Shown here: piece after piece, positions 15,540 through 55,581 of the stretch
Numbering within the stretch: position 1 is the first letter of the stretch
How the letters are laid out: each line of letters begins with the position of its first letter
IMG/VR virus record: IMGVR_UViG_3300036793_000047
Location: 148 to 64,147 of that record
DNA from: a virus
Taxonomy: Duplodnaviria; Caudoviricetes
Length of the DNA: 64,000 nucleotides
Strand: one strand, 5' to 3'
Translations under genes and position numbers: made by a program
The notes under the pieces: generated by a model
What the model was told of the DNA's origin: nothing
Databases searched by the model: none
What the model saw: only the letters and a program-made list of their open reading frames with translations

Positions 15540-15593
15540 CTGTCGTCGACGTCGCGCGCATCACAGTCGCGCCCGAGTGACGCGCTGACAGAC

Positions 15594-15804
15594 GTCCGGC
15601 CGGCTCCCGTCTTCCCCGAGAGCCGGCCGGACCGATCCCCAATCTGCTGCCACGCAGCCCCGAGCATAACGAGCGCCCCCGATCGAGCGGAACGATCGGG
15701 GGCGCTTCGGCGTGTCTGTGAGATCTTCCACGGCGCGCGCACCCGACACAGGGTGAATGGTCGGGCGCGCGCCCGCTGGAGAGAAGGAGTCGCGAGAACG
15801 CGAC
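15594..15804 (+). ncRNA. Cluster of four strong stem-loops (terminator array or candidate sRNA)
   Basis: Perfect 13-bp stem 15594-15632; perfect 14-bp stem 15672-15706; 14-bp stem with a 2-nt bulge 15732-15773; 6-bp stem 15789-15804. Confidence 0.4.
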
Positions 15805-15865
15805 CCGATCTGAGCGCCATGTTACCGCACGTCACAGCTGCAGCCGATAGGGCGGGCCTGCTGCT

Positions 15866-23327: not shown

Positions 23328-23472
23328 CACAGCGCTCATCGTCGCAGCTGTCGCCGGCGCAGCGGGCGGGTACATCGTCGGACGCTGCCACCAGGCAGTC
23401 AGGTACTGGATCGCAGCCGGCCGCAAGCTGCGCCGGGACTGGGGCAGCTTCCGGCACGGCCCGCGCTTGTAG
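23320..23472 (+). CDS. Small membrane protein
   Basis: 50 aa with an N-terminal TM segment. Confidence 0.45.
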   Translation: MHDTALIVAAVAGAAGGYIVGRCHQAVRYWIAAGRKLRRDWGSFRHGPRL

Positions 23473-23581
23473 GCGCGGCGCTAACGGGTCGTGCTCGTCG
23501 CTGCAGCTGATCAGTCACGAGCACGCCCGCCGCCTGTCAGCCGCGCTCGATCGTCACCCGCTGCTGTACGACGTCAGCCGC

Positions 23582-23743
23582 TCAGCTGACGCCGACATCC
23601 CAGTGGAAGTGCCCGACTGAGAAGTGCCAGTCGAACCCGCCTATCGCGTGTATGACGAACGCGAGCACGATGACGACGACGACGACGATGAGCAGCCAGA
23701 TCAGGAATCTGAGAAACGCGGGAAGTCCGCTGAGCCAGGACAT
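23582..23743 (-). CDS. 53-aa membrane protein on the opposite strand of the early arm
   Basis: MSWLSGLPAFLRFLIWLLIVVVVVIVLAFVIHAIGGFDWHFSVGHFHWDVGVS; fills an otherwise empty gap; not in the ORF track. Confidence 0.55.
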   Translation of the reverse strand: MSWLSGLPAFLRFLIWLLIVVVVVIVLAFVIHAIGGFDWHFSVGHFHWDVGVS

Positions 23744-37146: not shown

Positions 37147-37728
37147 TCAGGCAGCGCGCGCGACGTCGAGCGGAGCTGGAGCGTCGAGCAGCATAGACAA
37201 GTCGATGGGACGGTCATACCCAGTCCACCGGCCCGGCCACAGCGCAGTGCCGCCCTTCCACTCCCACCACGCGACAGCCTGGCTGCAGATCATGTGCCGA
37301 GTCGACTCGACAAACTGCTGCAGCCCCGGCGCTGGGATATGCCAGGCGCGCGCTGCCAGCGCCGCATAGTCAGCGAACGAATAATCGACCTCATCGTCGC
37401 CGCTGCGATGAGCGGCCGCGCACGACAGCTCGCGCGCTCGATCACTCTTGACGATCACGCCGGACGACCAGGCCATCGACCCGGCCGGGTAGTGCAGCGG
37501 CACGTGCTGACAGCCGCCCGGCATCATCTCGCTGATCATCTTGACGCCGTTGAGCACGCAGCAGTGATACGCCGCGTGCTCGTAATCGCCGTGCCCGCCC
37601 GACGCCTTCTCCAGCTCGTATATGAGCCGGCCGACCGCTGACGTCGAGTGCACGACCGTCCAGTCTCCCGGCCGGACCTCTGCGCCAGCAGCGACCCAGC
37701 CGAGAGACGTCGCGACGTACTTCGTCAC
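37147..37728 (-). CDS. Permuted papain-like NlpC/P60 amidase (YiiX/YaeF-like)
   Basis: RPGDW...YEHAAY (His first)...YSF..Y...MICSQAV (Cys last). Confidence 0.65.
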   Translation of the reverse strand: MTKYVATSLGWVAAGAEVRPGDWTVVHSTSAVGRLIYELEKASGGHGDYEHAAYHCCVLNGVKMISEMMPGGCQHVPLHYPAGSMAWSSGVIVKSDRARELSCAAAHRSGDDEVDYSFADYAALAARAWHIPAPGLQQFVESTRHMICSQAVAWWEWKGGTALWPGRWTGYDRPIDLSMLLDAPAPLDVARAA

Positions 37729-38267
37729 GCTGCAGCACCGCCAGCCTGCTGCAGCATGTTCAGGTGAATCGCGAGCAGACGAGCAGTGACCTTCGCCGCG
37801 TAGATAGGCGAGTACCGGACAGTCAGCTGATTGTCTTGCTTCGACTCGCCGCCGCCACTCCAGTTCGTTGACCCGTCGAACACGATCGCGCCGTCGATCA
37901 CGCCCATCTTCAGATGCATGATCGCGCCGCGCTCGCTGCGCCCGATCGCGACAGACGACGCCGGATACGCCTGCTGAGCTAGCAGCGCTTTCTCGTGCAC
38001 GCCGGCTGCCTGCGAGCTGTCGAGCGTCAGCATCACAGCGACGTGCTCAGCTGACAGCTTCGTCGAGATCGTCTCAGCGAGCGAGTCATCGTCGAACCCG
38101 TACATTGCGACGACGAGCGACAGCCGAGCCCACGACAGCACCATCGCGAGCGCGCCGTGCACGTCGTCGACCGGCGAGAAAAACGTCCGCTCATCAGCCG
38201 GGTAGCCCGCGGGGAATCCGGACGTCGAGAACTGGTCGAGGTCGGACAGATCTGCTGCGCTGATCAT
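37725..38267 (-). CDS. Single-HKD phospholipase D superfamily protein (Nuc/PLDc_2-like)
   Basis: HLKMGVID (HxKxxxxD) plus GSTNWS...QDNQL; FFSP; AMYGF; ATG 38267 overlaps the upstream stop. Confidence 0.8.
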   Translation of the reverse strand: MISAADLSDLDQFSTSGFPAGYPADERTFFSPVDDVHGALAMVLSWARLSLVVAMYGFDDDSLAETISTKLSAEHVAVMLTLDSSQAAGVHEKALLAQQAYPASSVAIGRSERGAIMHLKMGVIDGAIVFDGSTNWSGGGESKQDNQLTVRYSPIYAAKVTARLLAIHLNMLQQAGGAAA

Positions 38268-48291: not shown

Positions 48292-51201
48292 CTACCCCCA
48301 GCCCGGCGAGTACGAGCCCCGGTATCCGGCTGAACGAGCTGCGCCGCCGAGCGCAGCTGCGACGCCTGCAGCTGTGTCGCCCGAGTTAGCTCGCACTTCT
48401 GCTGCGACTGCGCCGAGAGCGTCGCGGATGTCAGCGAGCAGCCCGGCGAGATCTGCAAGGCCGCGCTCGCTCGTGACGACTTCGCTGCCGGCTTCACCGA
48501 ACCCGTACGTCCGGCCGGACTTGCCGATGCCCATGACCGGCTCATTGATGACGCCGCCCTTGGCATACCAGTGCGGCGAGCGGCCGAGCCACGCTGAGTA
48601 TGCTGCAGCCGGCGTGCCGTACACGTCCTTGATATAGCGCTCACCCCAGCGGATCTGCGTCTTGTAATCCGTGAGCCAGTCAGCACCGGCTGACGCCATC
48701 TTGGCAGCCGGCAGTGCTTGCGGGATGCCGTACGCGCCGGATGACTTGTTCTGCGCGTCCCAGCGCCAGCCTGACTCGCCGTTCCACAATGCTTGCAGCG
48801 AGCCCCACTGTCCCGGACCCCAGCCGTAGTGCTGCATGAGCGACTTGCCGTACTGCTGCGCAGCGCCGGTCGCTGCTGTGCCCGCGGATCCGCCCTGAGT
48901 CGAGCTGCCGCTGCTGCCGAACCCGAGAAACGACTTGAGGGCAGACCACGCGTCTGAGCCGAGATTCTTGACACTCTTCAGCGCCCACGACGCTATGCCC
49001 TTAGCACCGCCGAGCATGCCCCGGCCGAGCGCGTTGATCAGGTTCTCACCCATCTTCAGGAACACAGTCGACGGCGACTTGATCCCGAAAAAATTCTTGA
49101 AAGCAGTCACGATCGTCGAGCCGATGTGAGCTGCCCAGCTCGCTGCGTGACCGGCCCAGTCTGTCGCGCCCTTGAACAGCCCGACGATCAGATTCTTGCC
49201 CGCAGTGATCAGCCAGCCGATCGTGTTATTCCAGACGACCATCACACCGTTCTTCAGCGTCTTCAGCCCGGACAGGAGACTGTCCCAGTCGCGCTGAATG
49301 AGCTGCACAGCTGCGTCGACCGGGGCTCGCAGGAAATTCTCGACGTCTCGCCAGATCCGGTCTAGCCAGTGATAGACAGCCAGGATGCCGTCCCATTCCA
49401 TCTTGAAATAGCGCACGATCGCGTCGACAGCAGCGACCACGGGCTTGCGCAGGAAGCCTTCGACGTCTCGCCACACGTTGTTGATCCAGTGCCAGACGTC
49501 GAGCAGCGCAGCTCGCACTGTCGACCAGTGCGTGACGATCGCGTCGACAGCGAGCCCGAACGGCCCGAACAGCAGCGCAGCGAGCAGATGCCAGTGATCG
49601 TGTATCCAGCTGAACACGTCTTCAGCCGCGCCGACGACGGCATGGAAGGCAGTTGTGCCCCAGTTCAGAATGTCTCCGAACGCTTGCTTGAGGAACGACC
49701 AAACTGCCTTAGCCGCAGCCTCAAGCCCGTGCCAAGCGTCGATCGCCCACTGCTTGAAGTCGCGCCAGTGCTTGATCACTTCGACGATCCCGATCGCGAG
49801 CGCTGCAGCGATCAGGATCATCCCGCCGGTAGCGATCACTGTCGCTGCAGCTGCACTCTCGACGCCGACCGTGTACATCACCCACAGCGCTGCTGTCTCG
49901 ATCAGCGACGCAGACTGGGCAGCCGCCCATACGACGATCCTGATCGAGCCCTGCACCAGCGCAGAGTTATAGACAGCAGCAGCGAGAGCTGCAGCAGTGA
50001 ACGCGCCCGCGAGCGCGAGAATCACCGGCAGATTGCCCCTGATCACGCGCATCAGCGCGAGCACAGACGGCAGCAGCGCGTTCCCGATGCGGATCCCCAT
50101 CGCGACTATGCCCTGCTCTAGCGTCTTGAACTGCTGCGACGCTGTCTGCTGCGTCTGCTTCCACGCGTCACCGAACGACGACGCGCCCTTCGCGATGTCC
50201 GGGTACTTCGACTTGATCCGGTCGAGCTGATCCATCAGCACGTTCAGCCCGGCGCCCGCGCGCTTGCCGAACATCTGCGTTATGACTTCGCCCTGCTCTT
50301 TCGCCGTCACGCCGTTCTTGACGAACAGTCCGTGTAGCTCGTCAAGCGCGCCAATCAGCCCGCCCTTACGCATCGCAGTCGCGAGCGACCCCGTCTTCTC
50401 ACCCCACGAGACGAGCGTCGCAGCTCCGGCTTTCGCCGGCGCGGCGAGCGCCATCACAGACATGCGCAGCTGAGTACCGGCCAACGCACCGCGAATATTG
50501 TTATCCCCAAATGTGGCCAATGCGGCGCCGACATCGTTTAGGGACAGACCGAATCCCTTGACAGTCGCGACCATGCCAGAGCCGAACGCTTGCGCTAGAT
50601 CCTGCATCTTCATGTCGCCGGCGCCGACAATCGCATTCAGAGCGCCCATAGCGCCCTGCATGTTCGTTGCGCCCTTGATCCCTGACGCCATGACAGCTGT
50701 CAGCGCGTTCGTCACGTCGACAAGATCAGCGCCGCCAGTCGCTGCGCCCTCAGCTGCGATCTTGACGAGCCCGAGTGCCTTCGTGCTCGTGATGCCGAGC
50801 GACTGAAAGTTTGACTCCACATGGAACAACGACTCTGCGAGCGAGTCAGGCGACAGCCCCACCTGGCCAGCCAGCGACAGCACGCCTGCTTTCAGCCCGG
50901 CTAGCTTCGCCTGCGGCACGCCGGCTTGCGTCGACAGCCGCTGCATCGACGCGTCAAACTTGACGGCCAGGTCGACGCTCGCGACTGCTGCCCCGGCGAG
51001 CGGCAGCGCGAGCATCTTCCCGATCTTCGCCATGCTCGTGTTCAGACGACTCGCCATGCCACCCGAATACGCTGACCCGGCCTTCGCCCCAGCAGCTGAC
51101 GCAGCGCCGGACTGAGCGTCAAGCTGGGCCTGCATCTCCTTCCCGAACCCCGTCGCGAGCGGACGGATCCGCACGAACGCTGTCGCCAGAGGCGTCGGCA
51201 T
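48292..51201 (-). CDS. Tape measure protein with C-terminal lytic transglycosylase-like domain
   Basis: TP901-type core, Trp-periodic repeats, ESGWRWDAQNKSSGAYGIPQALP. Confidence 0.9.
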   Translation of the reverse strand: MPTPLATAFVRIRPLATGFGKEMQAQLDAQSGAASAAGAKAGSAYSGGMASRLNTSMAKIGKMLALPLAGAAVASVDLAVKFDASMQRLSTQAGVPQAKLAGLKAGVLSLAGQVGLSPDSLAESLFHVESNFQSLGITSTKALGLVKIAAEGAATGGADLVDVTNALTAVMASGIKGATNMQGAMGALNAIVGAGDMKMQDLAQAFGSGMVATVKGFGLSLNDVGAALATFGDNNIRGALAGTQLRMSVMALAAPAKAGAATLVSWGEKTGSLATAMRKGGLIGALDELHGLFVKNGVTAKEQGEVITQMFGKRAGAGLNVLMDQLDRIKSKYPDIAKGASSFGDAWKQTQQTASQQFKTLEQGIVAMGIRIGNALLPSVLALMRVIRGNLPVILALAGAFTAAALAAAVYNSALVQGSIRIVVWAAAQSASLIETAALWVMYTVGVESAAAATVIATGGMILIAAALAIGIVEVIKHWRDFKQWAIDAWHGLEAAAKAVWSFLKQAFGDILNWGTTAFHAVVGAAEDVFSWIHDHWHLLAALLFGPFGLAVDAIVTHWSTVRAALLDVWHWINNVWRDVEGFLRKPVVAAVDAIVRYFKMEWDGILAVYHWLDRIWRDVENFLRAPVDAAVQLIQRDWDSLLSGLKTLKNGVMVVWNNTIGWLITAGKNLIVGLFKGATDWAGHAASWAAHIGSTIVTAFKNFFGIKSPSTVFLKMGENLINALGRGMLGGAKGIASWALKSVKNLGSDAWSALKSFLGFGSSGSSTQGGSAGTAATGAAQQYGKSLMQHYGWGPGQWGSLQALWNGESGWRWDAQNKSSGAYGIPQALPAAKMASAGADWLTDYKTQIRWGERYIKDVYGTPAAAYSAWLGRSPHWYAKGGVINEPVMGIGKSGRTYGFGEAGSEVVTSERGLADLAGLLADIRDALGAVAAEVRANSGDTAAGVAAALGGAARSAGYRGSYSPGWG

Positions 51202-51549: not shown

Positions 51550-52041
51550 CGCGGTGATGCGCTCGATCACTTCGTTGACGACGTCGAACAGCTCGTCAGG
51601 GCCGGCCTGTTTGTCGATCGCTGCGCGTTCAAACCGATCCCAGTCGCCCTCGACGTACTGCTCGCAGCCGACTGCTGACGGCGGCGTCCCCGGTGCAGCT
51701 GCTGTGCACGCTTCGCAGTCCCCGCACGCCGGTTCGCCGTGGTAAATGCAGTCGCGGATCATCGCGTACATGGCCGCCATGCCGGCCATGTCTTCAGCGT
51801 TGAGGCCGCGGTCGGCTGCGTTCGCGAACTTCAGCAGCGGCATAAGCCCGACGCGCTCGCTGATCCGGTACTCGTCGCCCATGAACGAGACCGTCTGCGC
51901 TTTCGACGCGACGCCCTGCACTGCAGCTTGCACAGCTGCGATGTCAGCTTCGCCCGACTCGATCTGCGCTTGCGGACGCGGACGCTGCTGCGGGTGACGC
52001 TGCTGCGGCTGCCGGTACTGATCGCGCTTATTCGACGTCAT
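51409..52041 (-). CDS. Tail assembly chaperone
   Basis: Between major tail and TMP; DWDRFERAA...LFDVVNEVIERITANPT. Confidence 0.75.
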   Translation of the reverse strand: MTSNKRDQYRQPQQRHPQQRPRPQAQIESGEADIAAVQAAVQGVASKAQTVSFMGDEYRISERVGLMPLLKFANAADRGLNAEDMAGMAAMYAMIRDCIYHGEPACGDCEACTAAAPGTPPSAVGCEQYVEGDWDRFERAAIDKQAGPDELFDVVNEVIERITANPTNARSDSSPAARNASTRSREHSSSPAHPQAAGLVPVSDLARSAG

Positions 52042-52619
52042 CCCCGCACCGTACCAGCGGTCCAGTAACGGAAGGGGAACCCTGACGCCGGAATCTCAGC
52101 GCGGAATTCGACGCCGATCTCAGCGACAGCTGCTCCCTTCTTGCGCATGATCGCCAGCGACCCGACCTGCAAGCACTGCTCCATGACAAGACGCTCTGTC
52201 GAGTCTTGCGCTTCCCAGCCGATCGCGACGCGCACTTCTGAGCCGACAGCGCCCGGCGTGTACGTGTTCAGCTGCGTCGCGCCTGACCCCGACGTCGTCA
52301 GCGAACCGCCGTTGATCGCCCGGCTCATGTTCGTCGCATGGATCTGCATCAGCGACATTTTTATGCTCGCTGCTCGCGCTGTGATGACGACTTGCATCGG
52401 GTCGTAATACTCGGCAGCGAGGATGTCGGCTGTCGTCAGCGCGTAGTCAAATTCTGAGCCGTCCATCGTGATGCCCAGCAGGCTCCACCCGCCCGGCCAG
52501 TTGTCAGTGAAGACAGAGCCGGCGACTGTGTTCGCGGGCAGCGACACCCCCAGCGCTCCGAGGTAGAGAAAGCCGGGACCGCCGGCGATTGCATTCTTGG
52601 GCACTACTGCACTGGGCAT
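52038..52619 (-). CDS. Major tail (tube) protein
   Basis: GPGFLYLG...W..LG.T.DG..F.Y...AEYYDP; position before the chaperone. Confidence 0.8.
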   Translation of the reverse strand: MPSAVVPKNAIAGGPGFLYLGALGVSLPANTVAGSVFTDNWPGGWSLLGITMDGSEFDYALTTADILAAEYYDPMQVVITARAASIKMSLMQIHATNMSRAINGGSLTTSGSGATQLNTYTPGAVGSEVRVAIGWEAQDSTERLVMEQCLQVGSLAIMRKKGAAVAEIGVEFRAEIPASGFPFRYWTAGTVRG

Positions 52620-52629
52620 GTCGGCCTCC

Positions 52630-53050
52630 GTGACCGGCTAGTGATGGATGTATTCGGCCGCGCTCGCGCACGAGCTGTCAGTGCGGCCCTCGATCTGCGC
52701 GATGGGGCAGACCGGCGCTAAGATCGCCGCAGCCCCTCGGGCGCGCCTGGCGGCGCGTGTCGGGGACGCTGCAGCACGAACCGGCGACTGATCGCCGGGA
52801 GTCAGAGTCAGGCACGAGTCAGCGCACTCGTGACGGGCAGTACCTGATACGGCTGCTTGCACGCCTCCCGGCTCGGACAGCCCGCAAGGCGAACGGGCTC
52901 GTCTCGCGCTTAGCGTGAGACTGTCCCGGCCAGTAGGGACCCGAGGGGCCATTCCGCGTACAGATCTGCTGAACGTTCAGACGGCCTAAGCAGGTCGGCG
53001 GGCCTGTCGCTGATGATGCGTCGCGGTCGTGCGCGCCGCCTGTCTGCCGC
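52630..53050 (-). ncRNA. Candidate large structured RNA / structured leader of the major tail gene
   Basis: About 420 nt with no credible ORF; an 11-bp long-range stem (52950-52940 with 52741-52731) encloses several hairpins; more than 10 stems overall. Confidence 0.4.
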
Positions 53051-53054
53051 AGCC

Positions 53055-53399
53055 TCAGCCGCCCAGGAACCCCGTCACGTCGTTCAGCGCCGGGCGCAGC
53101 GAACGATGCGGGCGACGATCACGCACTCGCCTGTCTTCGTGCACGAGCGGGTAAGGGAAGCCCTTGTCGTTGACAGCTGTGTACCCGACGTCTGCGTACA
53201 CGCCGGCTTCGTCGTGCGCGATCGAGTACCGGCAAGAATCGCGCATGCGGCCCGTGCGCACTTCAGCTCGCCGCTTCGCGCCGTTCTTGACGACTTCAGC
53301 GATCGGCGTCATCACGTCGAGCGCGAGCGTGCCGTGCGGGTTGTCGAGAAACGCAGCGAGCGCCAGGTGATCGACTTCGACGACGAAATCGCCCGGCAT
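53055..53399 (-). CDS. HK97 gp10-like neck/tail-completion protein
   Basis: AKRRAEVRTGRMRDS...ADVG...Y...VHE...RP..SLRPAL. Confidence 0.7.
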   Translation of the reverse strand: MPGDFVVEVDHLALAAFLDNPHGTLALDVMTPIAEVVKNGAKRRAEVRTGRMRDSCRYSIAHDEAGVYADVGYTAVNDKGFPYPLVHEDRRVRDRRPHRSLRPALNDVTGFLGG

Positions 53400-53402
53400 A
53401 GC

Positions 53403-53840
53403 TCAGCTGTCCTGCAGTGCGATGCTGACGCCGACACCGCGAGCAGCTGCGAGCGCGCCGTGCGCGCCAGCGCCCGCGACGTTGTGCCACTCATTGATCA
53501 CAGCTGCTACCTGGCCGGCCTGCTGATACGGCAGCCCCGTGACCGGCTGCGACGTGACACAGCCGACTGAGTCGAGTGTCACTGCGCCGTAGTCGGCGCC
53601 GATCACGCACGACTGCGCTGACGCAGCTGCGAGCCCGGCAGCTGACATCGTCGCTGACCCGGCCGACTGCACCGATGCGATCGTCGTGCCCGGTGTCACG
53701 TTCCCGGCCGACGTGATCGTCTTGCCGACGTCTGCCTGCGTGAAACTGTTACCTGAGTCGAGCACAGTCGTCGTCGTCGCGAACGTCATCGTCCCGGTGA
53801 TGTTGCGCGAGCTGAGCGGGCGCGTCTTCGTCGTCGTCAT
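53403..53840 (-). CDS. Putative virion accessory protein
   Basis: Thr/Ser/Ala-rich beta segment plus a C-terminal PYQQ..Q.A..INEWHN motif shared with the next gene. Confidence 0.55.
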   Translation of the reverse strand: MTTTKTRPLSSRNITGTMTFATTTTVLDSGNSFTQADVGKTITSAGNVTPGTTIASVQSAGSATMSAAGLAAASAQSCVIGADYGAVTLDSVGCVTSQPVTGLPYQQAGQVAAVINEWHNVAGAGAHGALAAARGVGVSIALQDS

Positions 53841-53843
53841 CTG

Positions 53844-54074
53844 TCAGATCTCCTGAATCGCGACGCCGAGCGAGCCGAGCCGCGACGCAGCTGCTGCTGC
53901 TCCCGTGCCCGCGGGGCTGTTATGCCACTCGTTGATAGCCTGCGCGATCTGCGCGAGCTGCTGATACGGCGGTGTGAAGCCAAGCGCCGTGTTCACTCGA
54001 TCACAGCAGCCAGTCGCGTCCGTCGTGATCGTCGTGAACGATCCGCTACTGCTCGGCTTGACTTTGGTCGCCAT
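53844..54074 (-). CDS. Small paralog with PYQQ...INEWHN motif
   Basis: ATG 54074 after GGGGA; 76 aa. Confidence 0.55.
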   Translation of the reverse strand: MATKVKPSSSGSFTTITTDATGCCDRVNTALGFTPPYQQLAQIAQAINEWHNSPAGTGAAAAASRLGSLGVAIQEI

Positions 54075-54375
54075 CGCCGTTCCCCTTTGCGCTCTCCGGT
54101 CCATACTTCGCGATGAGCTGCGCGCGAGTCATGCCCGCTGCAGCGTCTGGGTCCGCGCCCGTGCTCACGGCGTACGCAGCCCACTGAGACTGCGACGCGT
54201 TCAGCGCGGGCACTTCCAGCCGGACCCCTTCGACCGGCTCGACGTCGTCGAGCGGCACCCACGCGTGCGGCCCGTCGACGAGCGCTTCGTGCACGAGATC
54301 GCCCGCGTTAAACGCGCGCACGCCGTTGTAAGCGATGTCTCGCACCGCGCGGTAGTTCATGCCGACAGCCTGCAT
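54046..54375 (-). CDS. Small head-region protein
   Basis: PALNASQSQWAAYA...MTRAQLIAKYG. Confidence 0.55.
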   Translation of the reverse strand: MQAVGMNYRAVRDIAYNGVRAFNAGDLVHEALVDGPHAWVPLDDVEPVEGVRLEVPALNASQSQWAAYAVSTGADPDAAAGMTRAQLIAKYGPESAKGNGDGDQSQAEQ

Positions 54376-54378
54376 AGG

Positions 54379-54714
54379 TCACGCTCCTAGCGGATAGAGC
54401 TTCATTTCAGCTGACGTGCCGTCGACCGAGACAGTCACTCGGCCGTTAGCGTCGCCGTACGCGTTCGGGATCCGTATCACCTGGATCTGCCCGGCGGTGA
54501 AGTTGTACGTTCGGAAGCCCGGCGCAGTCGTACCGGCGAGCAGCCCGTCGACCGTCTGATTCACGCCGACTGTCAGCACGTGCGAGCCGGCTCCGGTGTT
54601 CCGGCACAGCAGCACGCAGCCGGCCGGGTACGTGTCGACGCCCACGCCAGCGCCAGACAGCTCAGTGACGACTGCGCCAGTGCTTACCGCCTGCACTGCA
54701 GCTTGTGCGGTCAT
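54379..54714 (-). CDS. Small beta-rich head-associated protein
   Basis: RNTGAGSHVLTV...DG...YGDANGRVTVS. Confidence 0.55.
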   Translation of the reverse strand: MTAQAAVQAVSTGAVVTELSGAGVGVDTYPAGCVLLCRNTGAGSHVLTVGVNQTVDGLLAGTTAPGFRTYNFTAGQIQVIRIPNAYGDANGRVTVSVDGTSAEMKLYPLGA

Positions 54715-54750
54715 GCTTGCCTCCCGGCTAGAAACTAGACACTAGACAGA

Positions 54751-55581
54751 TCACGCGAAGCCAGGCCGGCGCTCGCCCTCAAGTAGCTCCAGCGCGCGCC
54801 CCGGTATCCGGTAGCCCGCCGGGATGCTCTGTTCAAAACTCGTGATCTCCTGCAGCCCCGGCTCTTGCTGATCTGTCAGGTTGCCGCGCTGCGTCGCCCA
54901 CAGATCCCAGATGATCTCTTTCACACCCAAGATCACGTCGTCGGGTATCTCAGTCCGGCCGCCCGTGTACGTCGCCTTCCACGGCCCGAACCAAAACGGC
55001 AGGAACGACTGCAGGCGCAGCGTCGCAGCGGCCGGGTTGACGATCAGATCGCTGTTCTGCCAGACCGGCCCGCCATTCCACACTGAGCTGACAGACGTGA
55101 CTGATGCTGTGCTGACGAGCGGGCCATGCAGCAGGCGCATCACGTCGCGAAACTCGCCGGGGATGATCTCGTCAGTGAACTGCCGGATAACGAGCGTCCC
55201 GACGATGCGCTCAGCGAGCCGAGTCGCGCCGGCCATGACGCCGCGGATCTTCTCATCGTTGCGCGTGTCGCTGATCGCGAGATAGTCGCGCGTCTCAGCG
55301 AGTGACACAACTGACCGGAACTTCCGAACGTTGACGTAGTCCGTCTTGTGCGTCGTCGGGTTCGTCGTCGCCCAGTCGAACGCGTGCAGCCCGGCTTGCG
55401 CGAACACGTAATTAACGAGCAGCAGCCCCTGAGTCGCCGGGGGCAGCGTGACAGTCGGGCTCGCCGTCGTCTGATCCGGCAGCGTGATCGTCAGCGTCGC
55501 TGTCGCTGGGTTAGCCGGCACGCCGTTCGCGTCGACGATGGGCAGCGTCACTGCGTAGGACTGCCCGACGTCGTACGTCAT
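54751..55581 (-). CDS. Head-to-tail adaptor with N-terminal extra domain
   Basis: VVSLAETRDYL...DEKIR...ATRLAE...ATYTGG...IPDDV.LGV. Confidence 0.75.
   Translation of the reverse strand: MTYDVGQSYAVTLPIVDANGVPANPATATLTITLPDQTTASPTVTLPPATQGLLLVNYVFAQAGLHAFDWATTNPTTHKTDYVNVRKFRSVVSLAETRDYLAISDTRNDEKIRGVMAGATRLAERIVGTLVIRQFTDEIIPGEFRDVMRLLHGPLVSTASVTSVSSVWNGGPVWQNSDLIVNPAAATLRLQSFLPFWFGPWKATYTGGRTEIPDDVILGVKEIIWDLWATQRGNLTDQQEPGLQEITSFEQSIPAGYRIPGRALELLEGERRPGFA

Follow-up and report, generated by a model that had tools for sequence, protein, structure and literature searches.

Ribosomal protein leaders are known as chromosomal autoregulators that lie before their own genes, and the L17 leader (RF03132) is an RNA hairpin located before rplQ in Actinobacteria and Proteobacteria. 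Here we describe an element resembling this leader in a 435-nt non-coding gap between two late genes of an uncultivated soil actinophage. The phage is represented by IMG/VR record IMGVR_UViG_3300036793_000047 (64,147 bp; CheckV completeness 73%), and the window that we analysed is the whole 64,000-nt stretch from position 148 to 64,147 of that record. The gap separates the gp10-like neck gene from the tail tube gene, both on the minus strand. We read it as a composite of two parts, an acquired passenger insert that carries the L17-leader-like element in reverse orientation and a conserved sense-strand leader of the tail tube gene, and we give this reading as a whole about an even chance of being right.

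The window element shares with the bacterial L17 leader a 5′ hairpin (P1) followed by a second hairpin (P2), in which an outer stem and a bulged A lead to an inner stem of 7–8 bp that is closed by a U.G pair over the loop ACCUGAUACG. It differs from the leader in that it is not upstream of rplQ or any other gene, lies in a phage and antisense to the late operon, lacks the linker between P1 and P2 and scores below the Rfam cut-off. The insert that contains it can be compared with phage morons and insertion hotspots, where extra DNA is also present in one lineage at a late-gene junction, often on the reverse strand; in contrast to morons, it is gene-free, its cargo is an RNA motif, and neither a promoter nor a terminator can be recognised in it. 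Like GOLLD, ROOL and HEARO, the gap is a long, gene-free and hairpin-rich phage stretch, but it has no match to these families, no homologues, no covariation and no fold energy that is unusual for the genome. The ultra-small MPME mobile elements of mycobacteriophages are ~440 bp long and have 11-bp inverted repeats. The insert resembles them in its size, its short terminal inverted repeat and its actinophage setting, whereas it has no coding small open reading frame (ORF), no second copy and no similarity to GenBank phages. Stem-loops at 5′ ends serve as stabilisers or processing sites in phage late mRNAs, such as the RNase III sites of T7 and the SP82 5′ stabiliser in Bacillus subtilis. The hairpins of the tail tube leader similarly stand just before the ribosome-binding site of a high-copy structural gene in a polycistronic message, but they are short (4–9 bp) and are accompanied by a conserved single-stranded linker and an A/T-rich tail. 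Finally, the gap sits in the canonical slot of tail terminators (phrog_123; SPP1 gp17, lambda gpU) (PMC6316719), yet it holds no coding remnant, and the whole close clade is without a detectable terminator. The parts of the gap are as follows.

52620-53054: non-coding gap, 435 nt, between the gp10-like and tail tube genes
52723-53054: lineage-specific non-coding insert, 332 nt, no similarity in relatives
52731-52950, both strands: hairpin-rich core, 220 nt, closed by a 10-bp perfect inverted repeat
52811-52864, plus strand (antisense to the late genes): L17-leader-like element (RF03132 match 52811-52858)
52813-52832, plus strand: P1 hairpin, CACGAGT/ACTCGTG
52829-52863, plus strand: P2, with outer stem, bulged A at 52833, inner stem and 10-nt loop ACCUGAUACG
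52834-52841/52852-52859, plus strand: P2 inner stem, 8 bp
52646-52722, minus strand: two-hairpin tail tube leader, with conserved layout and compensatory changes
52720-52718 and 52715-52712, minus strand: TAG and CCGG of the leader
52712-52693, minus strand: leader hairpin 1
52693-52687, minus strand: leader linker TCGAGGG
52688-52656, minus strand: leader hairpin 2
52655-52646, minus strand: A/T-rich tail of the leader, GAATACATCC
52628-52624, minus strand: ribosome-binding site of the tail tube gene, GGAGG

The L17-leader-like element

An earlier note on this DNA, made from the letters alone, had proposed a structured RNA in the gap that it did not recognise. For the large RNA families this held, as our Rfam covariance search found none of them in the gap; but the middle of the insert, on the strand opposite to the late genes, does match a known motif, the L17 leader RF03132, which is the only Rfam match inside the insert. 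The GCAA tetraloop hairpin of that note is the reverse complement of half of this element.

The link to genuine leaders came from exact matches. A 21-mer of the element (52836-52856) has at least 120 exact matches among the 185,579 species genomes searched, and all 120 loci that were fetched (L090-L209), whose place was read from the title or from the sequence context, fall in the spacer that separates rpoA from rplQ in Comamonadaceae or other Burkholderiales. With one of these natural leaders (L096, Comamonadaceae, upstream of rplQ) the window is identical over 27 nt, 24 of them widely shared. The 10-nt loop is identical to the consensus, is closed by the U.G pair and occurs in at least 249 seed rows of the family. 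In the Streptomyces coelicolor seed row an outer stem of 3 bp, a bulged A and an inner stem of 7 bp carry the loop ACCUGAUACG (PMC7247131 supplement), and the window keeps every pair of that row through compensatory or wobble changes. Organised in the same way is the minimum free energy (MFE) structure of plus-strand positions 52828-52864, which has an outer stem of 4 bp, the bulged A and an inner stem of 8 bp (−15.0 kcal/mol, z = −2.4). P2 is intact on this strand only: the minus strand of the element (−11.1 kcal/mol) folds differently, since the inner stem has three G.U pairs among its eight and these become A.C there. P1 abuts P2 and, because the usual linker is missing, partly overlaps its outer stem.

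The score of the element on RF03132 (22.3 bits) is below the gathering cut-off of 34.9. A genuine Limnohabitans leader located upstream of rplQ (L104) reached only 24.1 bits, so the window element scores like genuine Comamonadaceae leaders, and three genuine leader loci were missed at the cut-off. As genuine leaders score below 34.9, the cut-off is too strict for the Comamonadaceae stem variant and misses this invariant form of the leader. A model built from 24 genuine leaders (R3) matched plus-strand positions 52834-52859 of the window with a score of 34.8 bits, each of the eight pairs being standard, at an E-value of about 1e-7 that is not independent, the sequences of the model having been fetched with the window's own 21-mer. 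This was the only R3 match in 149 kb, and none was present in 18 related loci.

Several points, among them this dependence and the low RF03132 score, weigh against the element being a captured leader. The RF03132 E-value was 4.6 when 3 kb were searched, 0.24 for a search of 161 nt and 0.023 when this family alone was run over the record, and with an Rfam-wide E-value of ~0.2–0.7 for the gap a chance match is possible on the covariance model alone. Neither an rplQ nor an rpoA remnant was found within 52300-53400, where the neighbours are phage neck and tail genes; the absence of these flanks is odd for a recent capture, although selection may keep a hairpin alone. The inner stem has the Comamonadaceae form and not the CCGG of the 249 seed rows, which include Streptomyces, and its presence in an actinobacterial phage leaves the donor unclear. 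The outer stem and the bulged A, on the other hand, are of the actinobacterial type. Nevertheless, chance would hardly yield so long a match to a deeply conserved element that also preserves the architecture, and true kinship of the element with L17 leaders appears highly likely.

Two side observations concern the bacterial leaders. In L090-L209 the P2 hairpin is the invariant 21-mer, while P1 covaries freely. Comamonadaceae leaders are also unreported by RF03132 at its gathering score (L104 was the one scored), which makes the annotated range of the family too narrow.

The insert and the terminator slot

We collected ~75 loci that encode relatives of the tail tube protein. In relatives whose tail tube identity is ≤ 62%, a phrog_123 tail terminator lies between the gp10-like and tail tube genes (L024, L026, L027, L031, L037, L054 and others keep it), so the earlier note had correctly placed the gap where a tail terminator belongs. 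The gene order 16.1-17-17.1 of SPP1 corresponds to the same slot, and gene 17, the counterpart of the terminator, is essential in SPP1 (PMC6316719). A hidden Markov model (HMM) made from the terminators of 13 relatives gave no match with E < 1 in either the window or the close clade, and no terminator fold emerged when the folds of the neck proteins of 111 and 109 aa were searched (all matches E > 0.02), in agreement with the earlier statement that no terminator is recognisable elsewhere. By these searches the 111-aa protein is a beta sandwich and the 109-aa protein is SH3-like with additional helices. That the gap itself is a decayed terminator was rejected, as neither tblastn nor the HMM revealed a protein-level trace of phrog_123. 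Members of the close clade without a recognisable terminator are L005-L011, L014, L016, L021 and the window (52038-55581).

The spacing between the gp10-like and tail tube genes ranges from 75 to 1221 nt in the relatives. In the nearest ones it is 75–160 nt, and in the closest of all (L087, 77% tail tube identity) 121 nt. The slot is empty in some relatives and holds further ORFs in others (L023, L028, L073, L043). Its cargo includes the following.

L016:2570-2899, plus strand: HNH endonuclease
L008:2399-2782, minus strand: secreted 127-aa protein with a signal peptide
L088:108-508, minus strand: two small genes, 76 and 57 aa
L028:750-1301, plus strand: 183-aa protein, phrog_19622 (esterase/lipase)
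L014:2346-2910, L030 and L089:1-330: non-coding filler of ~565 nt, 80% G+C, 93% identical among these three metagenome contigs

The slot is thus an insertion hotspot, and this uncultivated actinophage clade is one in which the slot emptied of a recognisable terminator receives cargo. In the filler of L014, L030 and L089 a repeat resembling GCGCAATCCGCGCG occurs in inverted copies; Rfam gave no match to this filler, whose folding z-score is −1.4.

The 332-nt insert of the window is unlike every filler found in the slot of relatives. No similarity to it was detected by blastn or nhmmer in ~70 related loci, in the whole records of five relatives or in GenBank phages. Scans of IMG/VR for exact patterns (two hairpins and the closing stem) gave no copy of the insert and returned only the chance loci L078 and L079.

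The most economical reading of the insert is that it is passenger DNA, a reading that in our estimate is about as apt to hold as to fail and that we prefer to each of the others; the insert is most probably a passenger. The slot would have lost its terminator gene in the whole clade and then become an insertion hotspot, and the insert would have been acquired recently and only in the lineage of this phage. It may come from the spacer between a bacterial rpoA and rplQ, either as a scrap or as a ‘moron’ in reverse orientation that was built on such a scrap, and illegitimate recombination would have brought it in. An orphan, intact copy of a leader in a phage late operon would mean either that such motifs travel as hotspot passengers or that a phage binds a ribosomal protein. 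We found no account of ribosomal protein leaders in phages in a literature search that was only partly aimed at leaders in phages.

The second of these possibilities is that the insert is a working reverse-strand non-coding moron, giving an antisense RNA of ~220 nt whose L17-binding hairpin would act as a decoy or sponge for free L17. In infected or lysogenic cells, such sponging would alter the assembly of ribosomes or the autoregulation of rplQ. The strand on which P2 is intact is consistent with this, as is the fact that the element has been kept while the flanking rpoA and rplQ sequence is gone. Reverse-strand expression units also occupy the same slot in L008 and L088, and such an RNA would have its ends joined by the 10-bp closing stem. 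But the plus strand has no sigma-70-like promoter and no intrinsic terminator, and a second phage with the element was not found (no exact matches in IMG/VR and none in the relatives). Moreover, P1 and the outer stem of P2 overlap and cannot both form fully, and even the bacterial leader is no more than predicted to bind L17 (PMC7247131). We therefore hold a working antisense RNA to be unlikely. The more specific claim that an actinophage mimic of the host's autoregulatory leader, made as a small RNA with paired ends, soaks up free L17 and so disturbs rplQ feedback or ribosome assembly, in which case a virus would use RNA to decoy a ribosomal protein, likewise seems unlikely to us.

Passenger DNA with a genuine leader copy also has to be weighed against an insert whose L17 likeness is accidental or irrelevant, i.e. 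neutral filler, the remains of gene turnover or a dead miniature mobile element. The Rfam-wide E-values (0.24–4.6) allow for this. The MFE of the gap is ordinary, with hairpins such as 70% G+C DNA gives, and the slot is a hotspot with unrelated fillers. The core is bounded by a perfect 10-bp inverted repeat, and the other repeats at the insert ends (9-bp direct and 15-bp inverted) are at chance level by our own estimate. Yet identity over 27 nt with L096, 24 of them widely shared and with the whole architecture kept, is very unlikely to arise by chance. A miniature inverted-repeat transposable element or other mobile element was rejected: the core is single-copy in the genome, has no copy in the relatives or in IMG/VR and shows no convincing flanking duplication. 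Nor is any phrog_123 similarity left. This alternative is accordingly improbable, and passenger DNA with a genuine leader copy is the reading that we retain.

The tail tube leader

The second part of the gap is a two-hairpin leader directly before the tail tube gene. In aligned DNA upstream of the tail tube start, every close relative examined has the same layout, in the order TAR, CCGG, hairpin 1, linker (YCGARGG or GCTAGGG), hairpin 2, A/T-rich tail (e.g. GTATATCC or GAATACATCC) and ribosome-binding site. We folded 19 sequences individually, those of 18 distinct relatives of the close clade and that of the window. In these folds hairpin 1 ends at the linker and hairpin 2 begins 2–3 bases after it. 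The distance from the linker to the ATG is 55–65 nt in the 18 relatives and 74 nt in the window, where hairpin 2 is longer. The leader is conserved in place and structure across the clade, while its stem sequences differ and are largely unrelated between phages. In a covariance-model alignment of seven sequences, 100% of the cells were paired and 12 were changed on both sides, and both stems contained compensatory changes. None of 500 shuffles attained these values, and controls in which the sequences were slid were 27–48% paired. The tail tube gene of this clade thus has a small, covarying leader that is specific to the gene.

Searches with models and descriptors had limits set by the leader subtypes. 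Models R1 and R2 are biased to the GCTAGGG subtype, and the TCGARGG subtype scores weakly. In the records of four relatives R2 matched the tail tube site only, and in the window the leader was its sole match, a weak one (12.4 bits); it failed to detect the leader of L005, which belongs to a subtype that R2 scores weakly. A strict hairpin descriptor located the leader correctly in 11 of 18 sequences, with ~1 match per kb as background. A loose descriptor was discarded as unspecific genome-wide (131 matches vs ~80 in shuffles). We also considered whether the leader is duplicated inside the insert and rejected this, as local alignment stayed at the shuffle level and R2 found the true leader only.

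We infer that the leader is a cis-acting element of the tail tube mRNA that may govern how this mRNA is processed, how stable it is or how its translation starts. The message has to be present in high copy, and the leader would act on it independently of the upstream neck genes. The leader has no sigma-70-like promoter and no U-tract. By folding energy the leader can be placed on the sense strand only tentatively, as sense and antisense differ too little (p = 0.06–0.10). The earlier note had suggested a cis element of the tail tube mRNA for all ~420 nt; this stands for the last ~75–100 nt, i.e. the conserved leader, and not for the whole length.

Folding and coding status of the gap

The ORF that had been considered in the gap, a 104-aa frame (ORF104, 52638-52952), is not a gene. 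Its G+C content by codon position is flat (.69/.70/.70), whereas the neighbouring genes have.75–.83 at the third and.45–.61 at the second position. A search of 5.8 billion proteins gave no homologue of it, and neither Pfam nor PHROG matched it. Since ORF104 shows neither a codon-position signal nor homologues, we regard the gap as non-coding, which bears out the earlier view that it holds no credible ORF. Two small plus-strand ORFs were likewise rejected as genes, having no coding signal, homologues or family. The gap contains no tRNA or tmRNA, and a search of both its strands gave no promoter or terminator; a single weak site that resembles a terminator is located within the tail tube gene. 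A GTACGCG ‘operator’ in the gap was also dismissed, as the 7-mer is enriched genome-wide and a single copy means nothing. GTACGCG occurs 47 times in the whole window vs 20 ± 4 from shuffles, which fits the earlier-noted GGTACGCGT operator.

All stems that had been listed before were present at their positions, including the long-range stem 52950-52940/52741-52731, which on the minus strand has 10 perfect pairs and one G.U; this 11th pair exists on the minus strand only. The description of the gap as densely base-paired fared less well. Compared to shuffles the whole gap folds near chance (minus strand, MFE z = −0.88; plus strand, −0.84); the folding z-score of the insert is −1.7. The 220-nt core (52731-52950) stands out with z = −3.6 against dinucleotide shuffles on both strands, for bounds that were picked after the fact by the closing stem, and its flanks fold at the shuffle level. 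Compared to 798 windows of the same genome regressed on G+C, the core has z = −1.8, and 30 of these windows fold as well (top 4%). It contains five perfect local hairpins vs a genome mean of ~2.5, and 6.7% of windows equal this number. The core is thus only modestly above chance, and the many other hairpins of the insert are ordinary for non-coding DNA of 70% G+C; they are most probably not one large functional RNA. In a minus-strand scan with 220-nt windows, four other stretches (49781-50000, 37541-37760, 23381-23680 and 15541-15840) fold far better for their G+C than the core, with residual z-scores of −3.8 to −2.6; the last overlaps an earlier-noted four-hairpin element.

The idea that the whole ~420 nt form one novel large sense-strand RNA, or a long element that enhances tail tube translation, can appeal to the z-score of the core against shuffles, to the long-range stem, which is kept in the centroid fold, and to the presumable co-transcription of the region with the late genes. 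It is nonetheless very improbable, as the whole gap folds with z of only −0.9, the core with its retrospective bounds is no higher than among the top 4% of genome windows, both strands fold to the same extent, the insert is missing from the nearest relatives, and the best-defined hairpin of the core folds properly on the plus strand only. The novel, ornate RNA of the earlier note thus found no backing: the Rfam search gave no match to a known large-RNA family, searches of related loci, records of relatives, GenBank phages and IMG/VR patterns gave no homologues that could supply covarying pairs, and the fold energy is ordinary for the genome.

The late genes around the gap, all on the minus strand, are given below in their order along that strand.

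54751-55581, minus strand: head-tail adaptor (phrog_442)
after the adaptor, minus strand: 111-aa protein (phrog_16194)
after the 111-aa gene, minus strand: 109-aa protein (phrog_2322)
53403-54104, minus strand: two related genes, 86 and 145 aa, between the 109-aa and gp10-like genes
53055-53399, minus strand: gp10-like neck gene (Neck1/tail completion), upstream border of the gap (PF04883, E 0.0013; phrog_5, E 0.0095)
52038-52619, minus strand: tail tube gene, ATG at 52619, downstream border of the gap (PF25681, E 1.4e-5; phrog_117)
after the tail tube gene, minus strand: chaperone and tape-measure genes

The gp10-like protein is 41–52% identical to that encoded at the same position in relatives, and the tail tube protein has 221 homologues at E ≤ 1e-20, the closest being 77% identical. 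The named relatives of these and other proteins indicate that the host of the phage is an actinobacterium: those of the terminase are all from Streptomyces, those of the tail tube protein are from Micromonospora and Verrucosispora, and the TraB-like ATPase matches actinobacterial plasmids only. A related GenBank phage was not found, whether searched by DNA or by the tail tube protein. One contig (L213; JGI 3300036833, 10,014 bp), from a much closer relative of this phage, encodes the most similar terminase (88% identical); it covers the early and terminase side and stops before the tail region.

The 145-aa and 86-aa genes (53403-54104) have no Pfam or PHROG match. Their products have in common a C-terminal motif, PYQQ..Q.A..INEWHN, followed by a G/A-rich tail. 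No gene with this motif is present in L006, L007, L011 or L021, while L005, L014 and L030 have a single such gene, located between the 109-aa and gp10-like genes.

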